Source of the DNA: a virus
Lineage: Duplodnaviria; Heunggongvirae; Uroviricota; Caudoviricetes
DNA: 47,553 nucleotides
Direction: 5' to 3' (one strand)
IMG/VR virus record: IMGVR_UViG_2939177367_000001
Made by a program: the position numbers and the translations under genes. The notes under the pieces were generated by a model, which did not search any database, had not been told where the DNA came from, and worked only from the letters and a program-made list of their open reading frames with translations. Shown here one piece after another: positions 15,314 through 47,553 of this stretch; the stretch's first letter is position 1; each line of letters begins with the position of its first letter.

Positions 15314-15856
15314 ATGAACGTAAAAATCAGATACGGCCTGTCGGCTGCCGTTCTGGCACTGATTGCCGTCGGTGCGCCTGCGCCTGATATTCTCGACCAG
15401 TTTCTGAATGAAAAAGAAGGTAACCACACAACGGCATACCGCGATGGTTCCGGCATCTGGACCATCTGTCGGGGTGCCACGGTGGTGGATGGAAAACCCG
15501 TTTTTCCCGGTATGAAACTGTCGAAGGAAAAATGCGACCAGGTTAACGCCATTGAACGGGATAAGGCGCTGGCATGGGTGGAGCGCAATATTAAAGTGCC
15601 ACTGACCGAACCACAGAAAGCGGGTATAGCGTCATTTTGTCCCTATAACATTGGCCCCGGTAAGTGTTTCCCGTCGACGTTTTATAAGCGGCTGAATGCC
15701 GATGATCGTAAGGGGGCATGCGAGGCGATTCGCTGGTGGATAAAAGATGGTGGGCGTGATTGCCGCCTGACAAAAGGGCAGAAGAATGGCTGTTATGGGC
15801 AGGTCGAGCGGCGCGATCAGGAAAGCGCACTGGCGTGCTGGGGGCTGGAGCAATGA
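15314..15856 (+). CDS. R: SAR endolysin (lysozyme, phage 21 R-like, 180 aa)
   Basis: N-terminal signal-anchor-release segment YGLSAAVLALIAVGA followed by a lysozyme-like domain. Confidence 0.85.
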   Translation: MNVKIRYGLSAAVLALIAVGAPAPDILDQFLNEKEGNHTTAYRDGSGIWTICRGATVVDGKPVFPGMKLSKEKCDQVNAIERDKALAWVERNIKVPLTEPQKAGIASFCPYNIGPGKCFPSTFYKRLNADDRKGACEAIRWWIKDGGRDCRLTKGQKNGCYGQVERRDQESALACWGLEQ

Positions 15857-17430: not shown

Positions 17431-17577
17431 GTGAAAAAACCTGTGATCTGCCTGTTCCTGCTGATATCGCTGGTGGGTTGCTCGAATACACGTACCGTTT
17501 ACGTGCCAGCGCCATGCACACCGATACCGGCAGACCTAATGAAGCCTATGATCGTACCGCTACCACCAGCTCAATGA
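17431..17577 (+). CDS. Rz1: Rz1 (o-spanin lipoprotein, 48 aa), embedded in the Rz C-terminal frame
   Basis: GTG start with GGGAG RBS; lipobox LVGC; Pro-rich C-terminus; nested out of frame within Rz as expected. Confidence 0.6.
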   Translation: MKKPVICLFLLISLVGCSNTRTVYVPAPCTPIPADLMKPMIVPLPPAQ

Positions 17578-38161: not shown

Positions 38162-41100
38162 ATGGCAGTACGGATTTCAGGTGTACTGAAAGATGGCGCA
38201 GGTAAGCCGATACAAAACTGCACCATTCAGCTAAAGGCCAGGCGCAACAGCACCACGGTGGTGGTGAACACAGTGGCCTCAGAAAACCCGGATGAAGCCG
38301 GGCGTTACACAATGGACGTCGAGTATGGTCAGTACAGCGTCAGTCTGTTGGTGGAGGGATTCCCGCCGTCACACGCCGGGATTATCACCGTATATGAGGA
38401 CTCAAAGCCGGGCACACTGAATGATTTCCTCGGTGCAATGACGGAGGATGATGTCCGGCCAGAGGCACTGCGCCGTTTTGAACTGATGGTGGAAGAGGTG
38501 GCGCGTAACGCGTCCGCAGTGGCACAGAACACGGCAGCCGCGAAGAAGTCAGCCGGCGATGCCGGCACATCTGCCCGTGAGGCGGCAACCCATGCGACTG
38601 ATGCTGCAGGCTCAGCACGCGCAGCCAGCACGTCAGCCGGACAGGCCGCTTCGTCGGCTCAGTCAGCGTCTTCCAGCGCAGGAACGGCATCAGCAAAGGC
38701 CACTGAAGCATCAAAAAGTGCTGCCGCTGCAGAGTCCTCAAAAAGCGCGGCGGCCACCAGTGCCGCTGCGGCAAAAACGTCAGAAACGAATGCGGCAGCG
38801 TCACAACAATCAGCAGCCACTTCAGCATCCACCGCGACCACGAAAGCGTCAGAAGCTGCCACCTCAGCCCGGGATGCGTCGGCTTCAAAAGAGGCGGCAA
38901 AATCATCAGAAACGAGCGCAGCCTCGAGCGCCAGCAGCGCAGCTTCCTCGGCAACGGCGACAGCAAATTCTGCGAAGGCGGCAAAAACGTCCGAGACGAA
39001 CGCCAAGGCTTCTGAAACGGCAGCGGGACAGAGTGCCTCAGCTGCGGCAGGCTCAAAAACAGCGGCTGCGTCGTCTGCCAGTGCCGCGTCAACAAGTGCC
39101 GGGCAGGCCTCAGCCAGTGCCACCGCCGCCGGAAAATCGGCAGAAAGTGCTGCATCGTCCGCTTCAACAGCCACAACGAAGGCTGGCGAAGCCGCTGTAC
39201 AGGCCAGCGCAGCAGCGAGGTCTGCTTCCGCAGCGAAGACATCCGAAACGAATGCGAAAGCGTCGGAAACCCGTGCAGAATCCTCAAAAACGGCAGCCGC
39301 ATCGTCCGCCAGTTCGGCAGCGTCATCGGCATCATCTGCGTCTGCTTCAAAAGATGAGGCGACCAGACAGGCGTCAGCAGCGAAGAGCAGCGCCACGACG
39401 GCATCCACGAAGGCGACAGAGGCAGCTGGCAGTGCGACGGCAGCAGCTCAGAGCAAAAGTACGGCGGAATCCGCAGCAACGCGCGCTGAGACAGCGGCAA
39501 AACGGGCAGAGGATATTGCATCCGCCGTGGCGCTTGAGGATGCGAGCACGACGAAAAAGGGGATAGTACAGCTCAGCAGTGCGACCAACAGTTCGTCTGA
39601 AACGCTGGCGGCAACGCCAAAGGCAGTAAAATCAGCCTATGACAATGCAGAGAAACGTCTGCAGAAAGACCAGAACGGCGCTGATATACCCGATAAGGGA
39701 CGCTTCCTGAACAACATTAACGCGGTCAGTAAAACAGACTTTGCTGATAAGCGTGGTATGCGTTATGTGCGGGTTAACGCTCCTGCAGGTGCAATATCTG
39801 GAAGATATTACCCTGTTGTTGTTATGCGTTCTGCTGGCTCAGTAAGCGAACTGGCATCAAGGGTCATTATCACCACGGCAACGCGAACCGCAGGCGATCC
39901 GATGAATAACTGCGAGTTTAACGGGTTTGTTATGCCTGGTGGCTGGACTGACAGGGGGCGTTATGCTTATGGAATGTTCTGGCAATATCAAAACAATGAA
40001 CGAGCCATCCACTCAATAATGATGAGTAATAAGGGCGATGATTTGCGCTCTGTGTTCTATGTTGATGGTGCTGCTTTCCCTGTTTTTGCGTTTATTGAAG
40101 ATGGCCTGTCAATATCCGCACCTGGTGCTGATCTCGTTGTTAATGATACGACCTATAAGTTTGGGGCAACAAATCCAGCGACTGAATGTATCGCGGCGGA
40201 CGTTATCCTTGATTTTAAGAGTGGCCGTGGTTTTTATGAGTCTCATTCGTTAATCGTTAACGATAACTTGTCGTGCAAAAAACTTTTTGCCACAGACGAA
40301 ATTGTAGCGCGTGGTGGTAATCAGATTCGAATGATAGGTGGGGAGTATGGTGCATTATGGCGTAATGATGGCGCTAAAACTTACCTGCTGCTTACCAATC
40401 AAGGTGATGTTTATGGTGGCTGGAATACATTAAGACCGTTTGCTATTGATAACGCAACCGGCGAACTGGTTATTGGAACCAAACTGTCCGCAAGTCTGAA
40501 CGGTAATGCATTAACAGCAACAAAGCTGCAAACGCCAAGACTGGTTTCTGGTGTTGAGTTTGATGGTTCCAAAGATATTACTTTAACCGCCGCGCATGTG
40601 GCTGCTTTTGCCAGAAGGGCAACGGATACATATGCCGATGCGGATGGTGGCGTTCCCTGGAATGCCGAATCAGGCGCTTATAATGTCACCCGCTCTGGCG
40701 ACAGCTATATTCTGGTTAACTTCTATACCGGAGTCGGAAGTTGCCGGACCCTGCAGATGAAGGCGCATTACAGAAATGGTGGTCTGTTCTACCGTTCTTC
40801 AAGAGATGGCTATGGTTTTGAGGAAGACTGGGCAGAAGTTTATACCTCGAAAAATCTTCCACCAGAAAGCTACCCAGTCGGCGCACCAATCCCGTGGCCA
40901 TCAGATACCGTTCCGTCTGGTTATGCCCTGATGCAGGGGCAGACTTTTGACAAATCTGCCTACCCGAAACTTGCAGCCGCTTATCCGTCAGGCGTGATCC
41001 CTGATATGCGTGGCTGGACGATTAAGGGCAAACCTGCCAGTGGTCGTGCCGTATTGTCTCAGGAACAGGACGGCATTAAATCGCACACCCACAGCGCCAG

Positions 41101-41575
41101 CGCATCCAGTACGGATTTGGGGACGAAAACCACATCGTCGTTTGATTACGGCACTAAATCCACGAATAACACCGGGGCGCATACGCACAGTCTGAGTGGC
41201 TCTACGGGGTCTGCCGGTGCTCATACTCATGGTAATGGTATTCGTTGGCCAGGAGGCGGCGGTTCTGCGTTAGCATTTTATGATGGCGGTGGGTTCACTT
41301 ATGTCAAGGATTCACAGTATCAAGTAAGCCCGGGGACTTCTTCCAGTAGATCGTATTATCAACGTATTCAGACACAGTCAGCAGGTGCTCATACCCACTC
41401 GCTGTCTGGTACTGCAGCAAGTTCTGGCGCACATGCACATACTGTAGGTATTGGTGCGCATACGCACTCGGTTGCGATTGGCTCACATGGACACACCATC
41501 ACCGTTAACGCTGCTGGTAACGCGGAAAACACCGTCAAAAACATCGCATTTAACTATATTGTGAGGCTCGCATAA
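38162..41575 (+). CDS. stf: side tail fibre protein Stf-like (1137 aa) with long Ala/Ser/Thr-rich repeat region and C-terminal His-box repeats
   Basis: N-terminus [29 protein letters not shown] and C-terminal GAHTHS repeats match lambda Stf; central low-complexity repeats. Confidence 0.9.
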
Positions 41576-42156
41576 TGGCATTCAGAATGAGTGAACAAGC
41601 ACGGACCATAAAAATTTATAACCTGCTGGCCGGAACTAATGAATTTATTGGTGAAGGTGACGCATATATTCCGCCTCATACAGGTCTGCCTGCAAACAGT
41701 ACCGATATTGCACCGCCAGATATTCCGGCAGGCTTCGTGGCTGTTTTCAACAGTGATGAGGCATCGTGGCATCTCGTTGAAGACCATCGTGGTAAAACGG
41801 TCTATGACGTGGCTTCCGGCGACGCGTTATTTATTTCTGAACTCGGCTCATTACCGGAAAATGTCACCTGGTTATCCCCGGAAGGGGAGTTTCAGAAGTG
41901 GAACGGTACAGTCTGGGTGAAGGATACGGAAGCAGAAAAACTGTTCCGGATCCGGGAGGCGGAAGAAACAAAAAACAGCTTGATGCAGGTAGCCAGTGAG
42001 CATATAGCGCCGCTTCAGGATGCTGTAGATCTGGAAATCGCAACGGAGGAAGAAATCTCGTTGCTGGAAGCCTGGAAGAAGTATCGGGTGTTGCTGAACC
42101 GTGTTAATACAACAACTGCACCGGATATTGAATGGCCAGTAGCACCTATAGGGTAA
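41575..42156 (+). CDS. tfa: tail fibre assembly protein Tfa (193 aa)
   Basis: Size and synteny after stf; start overlaps stf stop. Confidence 0.85.
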
Positions 42157-43238
42157 ATTCGTAATGATTACCTAAATACGTTATTCTTTTGTTCAAAAAG
42201 TGATTTTGCTATAGGTAGGGAGTATGTTCTTGGATTAAGAATAAAAAATCGCCATGAAAGAGCTTCATGGCGAGTACATAAACGTACAAAATGTGATGAA
42301 AGTAGAGTGGCGTAAGCCACTATATTAAGATATGACAATAGCGAAGAAAAGTAAATAACATTTTATGGACGTTTAATTTTTAATTATAAAAACTAGAGTG
42401 CCCGATATTGTTTATCTTGCTTTAAAATAATGTACTCAAACCAAATTTTTGAGCTAAAAGCTCAAATAATATAAATGCAATAATAATGTTTAATAAGACA
42501 ATTAGCTTGCTTTGTATTTTCATTTCGGAATACTGTTAAGTAACTTTGATGACCCTAACAATAGATCGGAATTTTCTTAGAGTCAATGGTCACTGTTTTT
42601 GCTTGCAAAGCAAATGTTTTGGTGGTTATAAGTTGTCTTAATATAGTCACGCATGCAACTTGTTCCATGCGGAGATTAAAGATTGGAATATAACGCGAAG
42701 ATGGAATTAAATTACATTTGCAATAATCAATTTATTATTACTCAATAATTACCGATATTATTATTGTAAATTAATCATTAGAGTGCAAAAAGAAATGTAA
42801 CGGCAAAATAAGAGGACGATAGCTGAGAAAAAAGCGTGCTTTCCCAATCTGGGGCAAATCACGTCTGAATGACACCTGAAAACAGGTGGTAGCCTCAAGA
42901 AGGCTTGGAATATTCTTCTTTAATGTTATGTAATTCATTGATTTTTCGTGTACGATTTTAAGACATTTATTCCAAGAAAAATTTTTAACTCTTTGATTTT
43001 TCGACTCTGTATCATCGGTCTCGAAAACCGTAGACACATAGTATGCGTTAATTTATGAACAAACTACTTGTCTGCTGTTTTTCTGTCATTAGTCGTATAT
43101 AGAATGATTCTCTATGCCTAACAAAGCATCACCAGTGCTAGATTACGTTGTAGTCACTGTTTAAATATCCAGATAAAACATTTCCTTCTGGGTTGAATGA
43201 GTGATAAAGTTTCACCCATTAGACCCCTTGGAGGAATT

Positions 43239-44672
43239 ATGTCTGAATTTGAAGTGTTGGCACAGCATCTGCTGAAGGAAGCCGAGGCGGAAGAAAAGCT
43301 GCGACAGGAAAATGATAAAAAGCTTATCGAGAAAGTGCTGGAAATCTATGATCAGAAGTATGTGGCTGAATTACTGAGAAAAGTCGGAAAAAATGAGTGG
43401 AGCCGTGAAACCATTAACCGCTGGATTAATGGCAAGTGTTTACCAAAATCGTTGACTTCAGTAGAAGAGTCTCTTCTGCGTAAGATGCTACCAGAACCAC
43501 CTGCAAACCATCCGGAATATGCTTTCCGCTTCATTGACTTATTTGCTGGAATTGGAGGGATACGGAAAGGTTTTGAGGCCATTGGAGGCCAGTGTGTTTT
43601 TACCAGTGAATGGAATAAAGATGCTGTGCGTACATACAAGGCCAACTGGTTTAACGATGAACAGGTGCATAAATTCAATCTCGATATTCGGGAAGTCACG
43701 CTGAGTGATAAAACCGATGTATTGGAAACGGATGCTTATGCATATATTGATGAGCATGTGCCGGATCATGATGTGCTTCTTGCGGGGTTCCCGTGCCAGC
43801 CATTTAGCCTTGCTGGTGTTAGTAAGAAAAACTCACTTGGTCGTGCGCATGGTTTTGAATGTGAAGCACAAGGAACACTTTTTTTTGACGTGGCACGTAT
43901 TATACGAGCAAAAAAACCGGCAATTTTTGTGCTGGAAAATGTCAAAAATCTGAAGAGCCATGATAAGGGTAAAACTTTCAAAGTCATTATGGAGACCCTT
44001 GACGAGCTGGGCTACGAAGTTGCCGATGCTGCAGAAATGGGAAAAAACGATCCAAAGATTATCGATGGGAAGCATTTTTTGCCTCAGCATCGTGAACGCA
44101 TTGTTCTGGTCGGATTTAGACGAGATCTGAATATTCACAAGGGGTTTACCTTGCGTGATATCAGTCGTTTTTATCCGGAACACCGCCCATCATTTGGTGA
44201 ATTGCTGGAGCCTGTAGTCGACAGTAAATATATACTTACGCCAAAACTATGGGAGTACCTTTATAACTACGCCAAAAAGCATGCAGCCAAGGGGAATGGT
44301 TTTGGCTTTGGGTTGGTCAATCCTGAGAATAAGGAAAGCATTGCACGCACACTTTCTGCCAGATATCACAAAGACGGATCAGAAATTCTTATTGATCGTG
44401 GTTGGGATATGGCAACGGGAGAGGCTGACTTTATGAATGAGAGTAATCAGGCTCGTCGACCACGCAGGCTGACTCCCCGAGAGTGCGCACGCCTTATGGG
44501 ATTTGAAAAACCTGGAGGGAAACCATTCCGTATTCCGGTTTCAGATACTCAGTCATATCGGCAGTTCGGTAACTCAGTTGTGGTGCCAGTATTTGAAGCT
44601 GTTGCCAGACTTCTGGAACCCTATATCCTCAAAGCTGTTTCTGCTGATGCTGGTAAGACTGGGCAGCCTTGA
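43239..44672 (+). CDS. ecoRIIM: DNA cytosine-5 methyltransferase, M.EcoRII/Dcm-like (477 aa)
   Basis: Motifs [10 protein letters not shown] (AdoMet binding), GFPCQPFS (catalytic PC), ENV, QFGNSV; GGAGG RBS before MSEFEVLAQ; length equals M.EcoRII. Confidence 0.9.
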
Positions 44673-44678
44673 GAACAT

Positions 44679-44701
44679 CTCCCGGCCTTTTAAGCCGGGA
44701 G
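44679..44701. terminator. bidirectional hairpin between convergent M and R genes
   Basis: CTCCCGGC-loop-GCCGGGAG 8-bp stem located between the two stops. Confidence 0.5.
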
Positions 44702-44706
44702 TCAGC

Positions 44707-45915
44707 CTATGATAGTTCAGCGTAAAGCTCTATCAGCTCAGTAATGAATGCTCCGAGCGTTATTAATTCTTCTCTAACTGCTTCTGGGTATTTTTTATGT
44801 AAAGTTGATGGTACAACGAGTCTGACACCCGCATCTTTCATTTCTCGGTATTGTGCTGAAGAAACACCTTCTTGCAGTGTAAATAAATGTACCTGATGGA
44901 TTTTATCTGCTTCATTCAGTATCTGACGCCAGCGATCTTTGCAGGTGGTCTTTACTGCCAGCATACGTAAGTTTTCTACAGGAAATTCAACGTTATGATA
45001 TGCCTCTGCTGAAGGAAACAGGAAATCTGGTTTTTTATTACCTTCAGTAACTGCCTGAGTGGAGAAATGCCGTAGTCCGTGCTCGATAAAAAGCTTCTCT
45101 AGGTGAAGTTCAAGTGATTTGCCTGCCCTTGATTTACGTCGATTACTGACAGAGTTGGCTAATGCAATAAACTCATCTACAGAATCGAATCCTTTCTTAA
45201 TAATATCAAGAACATGTAATTCCTCGACGAGTAGAAAAATATCATACTCGACACGCCGACGGTCAATCAGTTGCTCATCTGGATCCTTGGAGTTTTTAGC
45301 ATAATGGCCAGCAGCATATTGAATAATTTCGTTTCCAGAAGGAAAACGCTTCTTCCAGTCTTCAGGAATAACATATTTATGATTTACTGGAGTTTGCTGA
45401 AGAGACAATCCGCCCAAAATTTGTCCGGCAGGGCCGGAAATTAGGGTTCCAGGTATGATTTCGCCAATAGCAGACTCGATGATATCCTCTTCATCGGGAT
45501 TGACGCAGACCCATATATCTACCTCGGAACAGTCAGTGTTCTGTTCGTTTAACCTGAAAGCAAGAATTGTGAGGGCTCCTGTATTTTCAGGGTTCTGTAA
45601 TGGACTTCCTCTCCCCCAGCGCGTAATTCTTTTTTCGTTTCGGGTCTTACCAAAATAACGGTTGTTGTAATAAATTGCGCGTGCTTGGGTATCAGGGCAA
45701 TCATGGGATGATACATGCGCAGTAAGGAAGACTGAAGGGTTCAGTTCGCGAGTATGATTGATAGATGGAAAAAGCTTTTCAACGATATTTGAGGGGATAT
45801 AAAGTCCGACCTGATGGCCACCTGTTGCGCCTGTGTCGTTTGCAGAAAGGCGTTTGATGTAGATAAAGTAATTCCCGCTTGCGATATCAAGCAGCCAGTT
45901 ATGAAAAACCGACAT
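44707..45915 (-). CDS. ecoRIIR: type IIE restriction endonuclease, EcoRII-like (about 402 aa)
   Basis: Translation MSVFHNWLL...YIKRLSANDTGATGGHQVGLYIP matches recalled R.EcoRII; convergent with its methyltransferase. Confidence 0.85.
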   Translation of the reverse strand: MSVFHNWLLDIASGNYFIYIKRLSANDTGATGGHQVGLYIPSNIVEKLFPSINHTRELNPSVFLTAHVSSHDCPDTQARAIYYNNRYFGKTRNEKRITRWGRGSPLQNPENTGALTILAFRLNEQNTDCSEVDIWVCVNPDEEDIIESAIGEIIPGTLISGPAGQILGGLSLQQTPVNHKYVIPEDWKKRFPSGNEIIQYAAGHYAKNSKDPDEQLIDRRRVEYDIFLLVEELHVLDIIKKGFDSVDEFIALANSVSNRRKSRAGKSLELHLEKLFIEHGLRHFSTQAVTEGNKKPDFLFPSAEAYHNVEFPVENLRMLAVKTTCKDRWRQILNEADKIHQVHLFTLQEGVSSAQYREMKDAGVRLVVPSTLHKKYPEAVREELITLGAFITELIELYAELS

Positions 45916-46000
45916 ATACATCCCTTTGTTAACATACAGTCAGGGTTAACATTTTTCCATAGTTATAGATAAGCGGCTAGGAACTTAAGGGAAAAACAAA

Positions 46001-46020
46001 AAGCCCGCATAAGCGGGCTT
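46001..46020. terminator. symmetric hairpin flanked by A-run and T-run (bidirectional terminator-like)
   Basis: AAGCCCGC-ATAA-GCGGGCTT with A and T tracts on either side. Confidence 0.45.
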
Positions 46021-46587
46021 TTGTGTCACTCGAGAGCCGCGGCTCCTTTGCGTATCCTTTTTTGTCTCCTCACCGTCTGGTCGGTGTCCTGCTAAGACTG
46101 CTAACTTCCTGTTTTTGTTGGTGTTGTCCTTACACCGTCCAATCATGATTGGTGGGCTGGCGGGAGTTGAAACCGCAGCCACGTCGTATGCAAGAACGTG
46201 CTGCGGTTGGCTGGTGAACTTCCGATAGTGCGAGTATTGAATGATTTCCAACTGTTATCGATTTTGCGTATTTTTTGCATGAGAGGATTTTTACCTCCTC
46301 CCGCCGATCCTCCATGGCTTTACGCCTGTGTCTCTGGTCTGCTCTGTGCCAATTGCAGACGTTGTTGCACTGCAAAAATATCTTGTCCGGATCAAGGTAT
46401 CGCCACCACTTGTTAGGTGGATTAATCCGTATTTATAACAAATACAATTCCCGGCTGTACCTATAAGCTGTTGTCAGTTATACAAAAGCGATGTAGTGTT
46501 CCACACATTAAATTTACAAACGTGGAAAAGTCCGTGTTTAGATACAGATTTTTCCGCTGAATAACCGCATATTTCCAAAGGTTTATC

Positions 46588-47553
46588 ATGAGTAAGTGGC
46601 TATTAGACAGGCTATTTGAAGCCGGTGATCAGGCAGAGCCCCGGTTTGCGTTTCAGGGGACTGTAAATTGGATGAGGGCCCTTGCCGAAGTCGTTAACGG
46701 TGGCGCTTGTGCCGATGATAAACTAAATGATTTATATGCTCGGGTACAACGTAGACCTGTCAATCGTGAAGCTGATACGCTTGTGTTTGAGAACACAATG
46801 ATGGCCTTACATAATCTGTCATCTTTGAAAAGTATGAATAAAGATGTCGAAGATAAATATGACATATGTCGTTCAGCTATTATTTCTTGGTATTACAGTA
46901 TCTATTTTTCCGCTAGCGCGATGGTTGCAGCATCTTCTGGTTCTATTCAAGAGACACATACAGCCACAGCAAAAGTTTGGCAGTCAGATATCGCGGAAAA
47001 AGAACTTATCCCATATCCATTTAATCTTCTTCTAACTAGTTTAGTTTCAAACACTGCTGATGCCGAGATTGCTGCATATAGAGGTGCTAACCGTTTCGAC
47101 CTGAATAATAGAGCTTATGATAATGAAACTGCTCATGGTGCACTGGTTTCCTATCTAAAGGGGACTCATGGCTACAAAAAGTGGGAAACAGAAGAGAGGG
47201 TGAGAACTTCTCGTGATTTCAAAGCTCTTGGTGTTGACAACTTTCGCACGAAAGCTGCTCGCGAAGTTCGCGATCACGCACTAGAAAAAGGACAAGTTAA
47301 TTTCCTTATTCAGGCATTTAGATACCGTGGTAAAGCGAACTATCGTGACTCTATATTTTTATCCTACGGTGACAACAACGAAGCTATTATAGAAGAATTT
47401 ATCCAAGATTTGTATGATGTCGCTATTGGCTTCATTAGGGCTACTTCGCATTATTGCAGTCGAAGAGTCGAGAGAGGTACGTGGGCTGAGTTTGTCGAGG
47501 ATATTTCTGATAACTCAAGGTTGTCTATTGACTCTGTCGTGCTTGAAATATAA
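46588..47553 (+). CDS. hypothetical protein (321 aa), unknown function
   Basis: Complete ORF ending at the last base of the window; protein-like composition; preceded by a 660-bp intergenic region with promoter-like AT-rich DNA. Confidence 0.6.
   Translation: MSKWLLDRLFEAGDQAEPRFAFQGTVNWMRALAEVVNGGACADDKLNDLYARVQRRPVNREADTLVFENTMMALHNLSSLKSMNKDVEDKYDICRSAIISWYYSIYFSASAMVAASSGSIQETHTATAKVWQSDIAEKELIPYPFNLLLTSLVSNTADAEIAAYRGANRFDLNNRAYDNETAHGALVSYLKGTHGYKKWETEERVRTSRDFKALGVDNFRTKAAREVRDHALEKGQVNFLIQAFRYRGKANYRDSIFLSYGDNNEAIIEEFIQDLYDVAIGFIRATSHYCSRRVERGTWAEFVEDISDNSRLSIDSVVLEI

Follow-up and report, generated by a model that had tools for sequence, protein, structure and literature searches.

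Latent HEPN nucleases carried by prophages are the closest described counterparts of the gene under study here. HepS of the Salmonella prophage Gifsy-1, a partnerless HEPN protein encoded in a lambdoid cargo slot, is inactive until the tail-tip protein J comes into play and then cuts tRNA anticodon loops (Sargen et al., Nature 2026, PMC13043305). The hepS gene is located between replication and antirepressor genes, and proteins were included as HepS homologues when they were shorter than 250 amino acids (aa), stand-alone and equipped with a canonical RX4-6H motif (PMC13043305). Tha of staphylococcal prophages is likewise latent until released by a phage product. In a further group of HEPN proteins, the AF0298 clade together with AbiV, the Rx4-6H histidine is missing, often with an aspartate instead, and a second conserved histidine N-terminal of the motif marks a possible alternative active site; AF0298-type HEPN-T genes at times cluster with restriction-modification (R-M) operons (Anantharaman 2013, PMC3710099). 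In this current study, we analysed the right end of a prophage in the virus record IMGVR_UViG_2939177367_000001 of IMG/VR (a stretch of 47,553 nucleotides, hereafter the window), where an EcoRII-type R-M pair and a gene for a 321-aa protein lie beyond the tail fibre genes. The reading that we favour, with a probability of about 0.6, is that a lambdoid prophage is integrated at thrW and that this region, its cargo end, holds two independent modules, an intact EcoRII R-M pair and a 1.36-kb single-gene cassette encoding an HEPN-T protein.

The window starts with the proA and thrW side of the integration locus. The thrW gene, tRNA-Thr(CGT), was located by ARAGORN at 1369-1444 on the plus strand, and the list of open reading frames (ORFs) places an integrase ORF beside it at 1459-2622 on the minus strand; thrW is the integration site of the prophage and marks its attL side. 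At the other end, a side tail fibre gene (38162-41575) is followed by tfa (41575-42156, plus strand; Pfam Caudo_TAP, E 4e-43), a tail fibre assembly gene and the last structural gene of the prophage. According to the original prediction, tfa is followed by about 1 kb of AT-rich DNA, a convergent methyltransferase-endonuclease pair and a complete 321-aa ORF, and all of these were present, with small refinements of their coordinates. The prediction had found no copy of the thrW 3' end and had left two options, prophage cargo or a separate defence islet. The copy is indeed missing from 41500-47553, where we obtained only chance-level matches of 11-25 nucleotides. In E. coli genomes that are identical to the window over 4.7 kb (loci L001 and L015), a 46-nucleotide copy of the thrW 3' end, attR, lies ~390 nucleotides beyond the stop of the 321-aa ORF. 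To the right of this copy are a truncated LysR gene and then paoDCBA, genes that usually border the thrW island on its right side. Because attR lies past the ORF in these near-identical genomes, both modules are taken to be prophage cargo. Moreover, phage backbone common to phage 21, phi458 and HK97-like phages was found on both sides of the 321-aa gene. On the left, a conserved lambdoid segment (46168-46336; common to HK97, HK106, phage 21, phi458 and the circular sequence CP081704) ends at the site where the cassette begins; on the right, 200 nucleotides starting ~120 nucleotides past the ORF stop are again common to phage 21 and phi458. Phage 21 has an equivalent slot, just left of attP, with a different gene.

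If the R-M pair and the ORF instead belonged to an older thrW element, with the prophage integrated later in tandem, they would form a separate defence islet, as the original prediction had allowed. This origin is unlikely. It would agree with the multiple occupancy of thrW (in E. coli EC21Z-144 a second element stands after an attR-like copy), with the varying left neighbours of the R-M block (an AT-rich segment, a GGDEF gene or a GIY-YIG gene) and with the state of EC0026B, in which the prophage is heavily decayed and the cargo intact. However, no thrW copy stands between tfa and the cargo in the window, and in L001, L002 and L015 the locus has a single copy, on the right, and the 12 kb on the left side of the cargo yielded none. 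Phage backbone makes up the DNA between the modules and around them; furthermore, the R-M block occupies the same slot in a circular phage-like genome, and the cassette is found inside P2-like and lambdoid phages. The original prediction had named two observations that would speak against its proposal, an attR immediately right of tfa and a match of the 321-aa protein to a housekeeping enzyme, and neither was found. From these comparisons we conclude that the R-M pair and the 321-aa gene would be cargo of the tail-end region of the prophage and no separate islet, with attR itself beyond the window.

The second element of EC21Z-144 (L002 17286-23705), located beyond the attR-like thrW copy, contains an integrase fragment, an Ash-family gene, a gene for a 1069-aa reverse transcriptase and an AbiEi/AbiEii pair. 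It shows that thrW can be occupied in tandem by another defence-carrying element, which in this strain lies beyond the cargo genes and not between them and the prophage. Remnants of tRNA-Ser and tmRNA attachment sites, suggested by feature names under two phage matches, were also considered. Neither ARAGORN nor Rfam detected a tRNA or tmRNA in 41500-47553, and those phage matches therefore represent flanking phage DNA.

The two modules have different distributions. The single-gene cassette occupies 46337-47553 of the window on the plus strand and extends for 143 nucleotides more, to window-equivalent position 47696. As a unit of 1349-1360 nucleotides, 99.3-99.6% identical, it recurs between unrelated flanks in loci L017, L018, L221/L222 and L223/L224. 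It was thus found in four otherwise unrelated settings, one of which is the lambdoid tail-end slot of this prophage. In a P2-like phage, similarity to P2 breaks off at the left (R) end site (P2 position 15361) and returns at the right (L) end site (17434); therefore, the cassette replaces fun(Z) there. In another lambdoid prophage it is located in the replication-to-Q region, lined up with genes for a STAND-like NTPase and a DUF3800 protein, and it was found in the chromosome of Silvania confinis as well. In these three other contexts (L017, L018, L221 and L224), the 321-aa gene occurs without EcoRII. The R-M block, comprising the methyltransferase gene, the endonuclease gene and their flanks (43016-46276), is conversely present at 98.5% identity in CP081704, from which the 321-aa gene is absent. 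Although labelled a plasmid, CP081704, a circular 43.7-kb sequence, is clearly that of a phage, since it carries baseplate genes as well as tfa, dinI, int, an exonuclease gene and rdgC; its R-M block is located between tail-fibre cargo and dinI-int. Hundreds of enterobacterial plasmids carry the R-M block at ~80% identity, and its left junction at 43016 is repeated in ~30 E. coli genomes. End sites of the cassette type were not found around the R-M block; the window has a single such site, at 46337-46360. Judging by where they occur, the R-M pair and the 321-aa gene form two distinct modules, each with a history of its own.

Given these separate distributions, the adjacency to EcoRII is weak evidence of function, and the phage cargo hotspots provide the better association. 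A functional coupling, with the 321-aa protein as a PrrC-like back-up fired when EcoRII restriction is inhibited, is very improbable. The R-M pair does lie beside the gene in all 41 complete E. coli carriers (41 of 5426 complete genomes, in which R-M pair and ORF occur jointly and match over up to 4.7 kb at 99.8-100% identity), and clustering of HEPN-T genes with R-M operons has been described (Anantharaman 2013, PMC3710099). Nevertheless, each module is found without the other, the R-M block lacking the gene on the more distant plasmids as well as in CP081704; R-M components are rare among 140 genes adjacent to homologues in 76 other loci; and the 321-aa protein has no PrrC-like ABC-ATPase domain.

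The replication-to-Q copy lies in L224 3577-8419 (IMG/VR UViG_2588254050_000004). There, a row encoding a 673-aa STAND-like NTPase, the 321-aa HEPN protein and a 390-aa DUF3800 protein is placed between replication genes and LexA-like, DUF968 and Q genes. On the L018 contig, a GNAT-like 182-aa gene forms a further cassette. The mcrA slot of e14 was examined as a homologous slot and rejected, with no nucleotide similarity and no end site in K-12 e14.

The R-M pair is itself routine. The methyltransferase gene (43239-44672, plus strand) encodes a 477-aa C5-cytosine methyltransferase of the M.EcoRII/Dcm subfamily, with the Pfam domains DNA_methylase and DNA_meth_N. Its ORF spans 43197-44672, and translation probably starts from the ATG at 43239, which is preceded by GGAGG and agrees with the annotation of RefSeq relatives. 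The product matched NCBIfam PRK10458 at 927 bits (cut-off 710) and PADLOC MTase_II at E 4e-230. The endonuclease gene (44707-45915, minus strand) encodes a 402-aa type IIE enzyme homologous to R.EcoRII, with EcoRII-N (PF09217, E 4e-61) and EcoRII-C (PF09019, E 2e-71) both far over the Pfam cut-off; the ORF reaches 45921, and the annotated start corresponds to 45915. When compared with the crystallised R.EcoRII (PDB 1NA6), the endonuclease aligned end to end over 401 residues (E 1e-242) at ~86% identity, as counted from the alignment. These matches bear out the EcoRII type that had been predicted for the pair. The two genes are convergent, tail to tail, with a gap of 34 nucleotides, and an intergenic region of 666 nucleotides separates the endonuclease gene from the 321-aa ORF.

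The pair thus resembles EcoRII in having a two-domain type IIE endonuclease (effector EcoRII-N, catalytic EcoRII-C) that aligns over its full length, a Dcm-type C5 methyltransferase with an N-terminal DNA_meth_N domain, and convergent genes. In contrast, its aa identity of ~86% and nucleotide identity of ~80% to the plasmid-borne genes make it a homologue and a different allele, and it is prophage-borne, whereas EcoRII belongs to an IncN-type plasmid. By homology, the pair would be expected to methylate CCWGG and to cleave it in the type IIE manner, with a need for at least two sites, thereby restricting unmethylated incoming DNA. A consensus scan detected a GC hairpin that resembles a terminator, with a T run, in the DNA that separates the ecoRIIR start from the phage backbone (45999-46022, minus strand; 10-bp stem, 6 GC pairs), which would probably stop minus-strand read-through into the endonuclease gene. 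Overlapping this hairpin is a weak, sub-threshold Rfam match to STnc350 (45971-46031, 27 bits).

The 321-aa protein (46588-47553, plus strand; RefSeq WP_000049501.1) is encoded by a complete ORF whose stop is the end of the window. It had been described as having no recognisable domain, which holds for the sequence libraries, as no match was obtained in Pfam, NCBIfam, PHROGs or the PDB sequences, and no longer holds for the fold. An AlphaFold2 model built from 40 homologues was of high confidence (pLDDT 90, pTM 0.89) and all helical, and the fold of this predicted model is HEPN. In HMMER comparisons, residues 93-128, including His124, aligned to the helix-2/His region of AF0298. The family profile weakly found AF0298, with WYYxxYxxAxAMxxAxxGxxxxxH aligned to YYAMFHAAKAMLLGYGRDSKTH. 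After an insertion at residues 141-217 had been spliced out, the profile reached the PDB HEPN proteins 9xbd and 9xbc at E 1e-3. Pfam HEPN (PF05168) was the commonest weak match among 51 family members, appearing in 4 of them with a best E of 0.027. Relative to the HEPN core, the protein has a 55-residue N-terminal extension and a ~75-residue insertion (~141-217). Taken together, the 321-aa protein is most probably an enlarged, divergent member of the HEPN-T (AF0298/UPF0332) clade.

The differences from the known members are considerable. AF0298 of Archaeoglobus (PDB 2hsb; UPF0332; PF05168) has ~125 aa, so that the 321-aa protein is 2.5 times larger; it differs further by its N-terminal extension, by the insertion between core helices, by having no MNT partner and by scoring below the Pfam threshold. 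With AbiV, a single-gene abortive-infection protein of Lactococcus, it shares the stand-alone HEPN organisation, the missing motif histidine and the upstream histidine, following the grouping of Anantharaman 2013. Unlike the present protein, however, AbiV has ~200 aa and resides on Gram-positive plasmids, and no sequence match between the two was detectable through PADLOC or Pfam.

The polar residues that are conserved down to 25% identity are His124, Arg228-Asp229 and, in helix 4, the run F-R245-Y-R247-G-K-A-N-Y252-R253-D254. His124 is at least 90% conserved over this range and invariant in the 40 closer relatives, with Arg247 and Asp254 nearly so. The histidine of a canonical Rx4-6H motif at helix 4 is not conserved in FRYRGKANYRD. 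An alternative HEPN-T active site would consist of the upstream H124 together with R247 and D254 of helix 4. It is possible, although we consider it doubtful, that the protein is instead a non-catalytic HEPN protein, acting as an RNA or nucleotide binder, as a regulator or scaffold (compare the sacsin HEPN domain and MtlR), or in the service of the phage through superinfection exclusion or counter-defence. A helix-4 motif without a conserved histidine would fit such a role, and the R245/R247/K249/R253 cluster would suit phosphate binding; inactive HEPN domains are known to act as binders (Anantharaman 2013, PMC3710099), and the protein has neither a toxin-antitoxin partner nor a PADLOC match. 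On the other hand, the conservation of His124, Arg247 and Asp254 fits the alternative AF0298/AbiV active site, and those solo HEPN proteins from prophage cargo for which tests exist proved to be nucleases (HepS). A very patchy distribution driven by horizontal gene transfer and the residence at the P2 Z/fun locus likewise fit genes of biological conflict.

As a candidate mechanism, we propose that the 321-aa protein may act on its own as an abortive-infection RNase, which would normally be latent and would be fired by an infecting phage. The extra helices (residues 1-55 and ~141-217) might serve as a sensor or as an autoinhibitor or lid, to be released by a phage product. Like HepS, the protein is a single HEPN protein without a partner gene and belongs to the cargo of a lambdoid prophage. 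Its cassette has a 99% copy in a replication-to-Q slot, which we take as a hepS-type slot, although the two positions were not mapped onto each other. HepS itself has fewer than 250 aa and the canonical R100-H105, whereas the present protein is longer and lacks the canonical motif; therefore, we claim that it may work like HepS and not that it is a member of the HepS family. The trigger (protein J) and the target (tRNA anticodon loops) are known from HepS alone. One member of the 321-aa family resides at the P2 Z/fun hotspot, whose cargo has time and again turned out to be anti-phage when tested, which therefore makes the gene a clonable candidate for a single-gene abortive-infection nuclease with a non-canonical HEPN site. 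It is credible that the 321-aa gene encodes an undescribed HEPN-T variant and is a good defence candidate.

The family as a whole consists of uncharacterised, widely transferred, enlarged stand-alone HEPN-T proteins. At least 767 homologue clusters were counted at 90% identity and 397 at 50%, and the length is nearly always 318-330 aa. Members were found in 152 of 185,579 species-representative genomes from more than 15 phyla; the phyla and classes include Gammaproteobacteria, Alphaproteobacteria, Campylobacterota, Nitrospirota, Planctomycetota, Cyanobacteria, Bacteroidota, Chloroflexota, Deinococcota and Acidobacteriota. Copies in different genera may be 93-99% identical. The family is patchy, horizontally transferred and strongly constrained. 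WP_000049501 is absent from the papers searched, as well as from the stored parts of their tables. The "Putative HEPN" that Rousset 2022 took from a P2 hotspot and tested proved to be a different protein.

Disrupted copies of the gene were observed in E. coli NZ_AP027783.1, in protein P0016 and in loci L058 and L068. The forms of disruption were an ISVsa5 insertion, a 239-aa truncated E. coli form, a Providencia remnant with only the C-terminal 142 codons, and a split ORF in a Chloroflexi metagenome-assembled genome. Such copies are compatible with a costly or toxic gene and prove nothing.

Gene neighbourhoods were examined in detail in six loci, and ORFs were called in 80 fetched loci, ~76 of which could be analysed. 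No recurrent partner gene of the 321-aa gene was found in these ~76 loci. Tyrosine integrases, present within 6 kb or less in 7 loci, formed the commonest neighbour family, and the 140 directly adjacent genes matched 153 Pfam families. Strong PADLOC matches among the adjacent genes were to GajA, SduA, PglX/type IIG, DrmMI, a type I restriction endonuclease, HerA, SoFic and LmuB; in addition, PDC-S06, PDC-S19 and PDC-S24 appeared as PADLOC candidates. Abi_C and HigB-like genes also occurred near homologues. HEPN-MNT pairing was not supported, in that no nucleotidyltransferase partner recurred in the ~76 loci and an NTP_transf_2 gene was seen, two genes away, in Aeromonas only. A conserved partner or operon, including an embedding in a type I R-M operon as for PrrC, was rejected; the large neighbours were heterogeneous, and only the integrases recurred.

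Several observations weigh against the reading that we favour. The attR and the L-type end site are outside the window and were taken from relatives. All 41 E. coli carriers represent one locus, so that the linkage with EcoRII counts as a single event. For the HEPN assignment, Foldseek searches of PDB and BFVD with the model yielded no significant whole-chain match, PF05168 never reached its gathering score in the 51 members, and the best sequence link (E 1e-3) needed the insertion-spliced construct. Without the Rx4-6H histidine, RNase activity rests on an alternative site that is proposed and not proven for the AF0298 clade. As for a role in defence, no PADLOC-DB 2.0 family matched the protein at E values up to 0.01, a family member was present in only 7 of 2.9 million viral contigs, and some homologues lie amid housekeeping genes, for example in Psychrobacter. 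The share of defence genes, ~15 of the 140 adjacent genes, is qualitative and was obtained without a control set.

The cassette and its end sites are the most interesting result, and one that came from outside the original question. An R-type site, GTCTGC-TCT-GTGCCA-ATT-GCAGAC, is located at 46337-46360 on the plus strand, and similarity to the three other contexts begins at its first to fourth base. An L-type site, GCCCGC-TTT-TCGCTC-ATA-ACAGAC (GCCCGCTTTTCGCTCATAACAGAC), is found ~120 nucleotides past the stop, at window-equivalent 47673-47696, in L001 and L220. Both sites follow one design of 24 nucleotides, with 6+3-nucleotide inverted arms (GTCCGC NNN / NNN GCGGAC) around an asymmetric 6-nucleotide centre, which is GTGCCA in the left "R" site and TCGCTC in the right "L" site. 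Across contexts, the outer arm goes with the flank and the inner arm with the cassette, while the centre is common to both; therefore, the junction lies within or next to the centre. In P2 (L219), fun(Z) is flanked by sites of both types, R (15335-15358) and L (17432-17455). Other sites were seen at L001 16853-16876 and at L018 1129-1198, 2507-2576 and 3988-4057.

The R pattern was present in at least 119 IMG/VR stretches. In these stretches (1.13 Mb), which were chosen by the R pattern and without any part played by the L pattern, the L pattern occurred 86 times, compared with 1.0 in shuffles (maximum 3). A same-strand L site lay 0.5-5.9 kb downstream of 63 R sites. For 31 R sites an L site lay ahead of them, and in 28 of these 31 cases the two starts were 33 nucleotides apart; L-R pairs at this distance are junctions of neighbouring cassettes in arrays. 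Moreover, one backbone, the P2-type tfa end, was seen 19 times, with 15 different sequences downstream of it, and identical cargo was found behind two or three different backbones.

When the pairing of the arms was examined for covariation, no compensation was seen (C-G 70, T-G 17, C-A 15, T-A 2). An RNA hairpin was rejected, given this lack of compensatory changes and of any Rfam match, which argues for a protein-binding DNA site as the likelier nature of these sequences than an RNA structure. Integron attC sites were rejected as well, as the R''/R' boxes GTTRRRY/RYYYAAC are absent. Two readings are then put forward. In one, the end sites would be heterospecific core sites for a putative recombinase, allowing replacement of cargo and no excision; in the other, they would be conserved islands at which phage recombinases swap cargo via short homology. 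The cassette would move among phage cargo slots by exchange at both end sites. With shared arms and different centres, R would swap with R and L with L, so that replacement would be possible and excision would not. That the R and L sites form a dedicated site-specific recombination system, swapping single defence cassettes among P2-like and lambdoid phages, satellite-like arrays and chromosomes, is put forward tentatively, and we regard it as less likely to be right than wrong. If true, such a system would offer a natural parallel to recombinase-mediated cassette exchange and would supply the mechanism so far lacking for rapid turnover at defence hotspots.

Compared with integron cassettes (attC) and with lox/FRT exchange, the units are alike in being promoter-to-terminator, single-gene units with imperfect palindromic sites, arranged in head-to-tail arrays, and in that one cassette occurs at different "platforms". 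As with the heterospecific lox/FRT sites of recombinase-mediated cassette exchange, there are two site types with shared arms and different centres. In contrast to integron cassettes, the units have no attC boxes, no intI gene was seen, and 24-nucleotide sites stand at both unit ends. The title of an article by Nilsson et al. 2004 (Mol Biol Evol 21:1) names site-specific recombination in P2-like phages, and that article may have described such sites; papers citing it give no site description. The end sites are unmentioned in Rousset et al. 2022 and in the 2026 NAR study of P2/P4 hotspots, both of which call the exchange mechanism unknown. With the end sites at hand, the question of hotspot exchange becomes directly testable.

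The DNA between tfa and the R-M pair was re-examined as well. The stretch at 42157-43196 (1040 nucleotides) has a GC content of 0.317, compared with 0.515 for the prophage, and contains short ORFs only, none of which matched a family. It had been taken for a non-coding 1-kb spacer and is not anonymous DNA, as 42157-43030 is an AT-rich segment of the lambdoid b region, 99.0-99.3% identical to PhiR70_1, ev099 and mEp332. In these three phages the segment sits directly after tfa or stf, and other cargo (an AraC regulator, IS2 fragments) lies beyond it; in ev099, int follows farther on. The last 138 nucleotides of the segment (42893-43030) are 90% identical to DNA just before the tRNA-Ser attR remnant of SerU-LTIIb. 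With the R-M block starting at 43016, the overlap at 43016-43030 resembles a module junction that recurs among lambdoid phages.

Rfam IS009 gave a full-length match (220 bits, E 9e-55) at 41918-42116, wholly within the tfa coding sequence; this small-RNA family coincides here with a conserved protein-coding segment of tfa. Elsewhere in E. coli, a gene for a GGDEF diguanylate cyclase or for a LEM-3-like GIY-YIG protein lies between tfa and the R-M block (L001 10272-11603 and L015 8044-8817), a slot that represents a third variable position at the prophage end.

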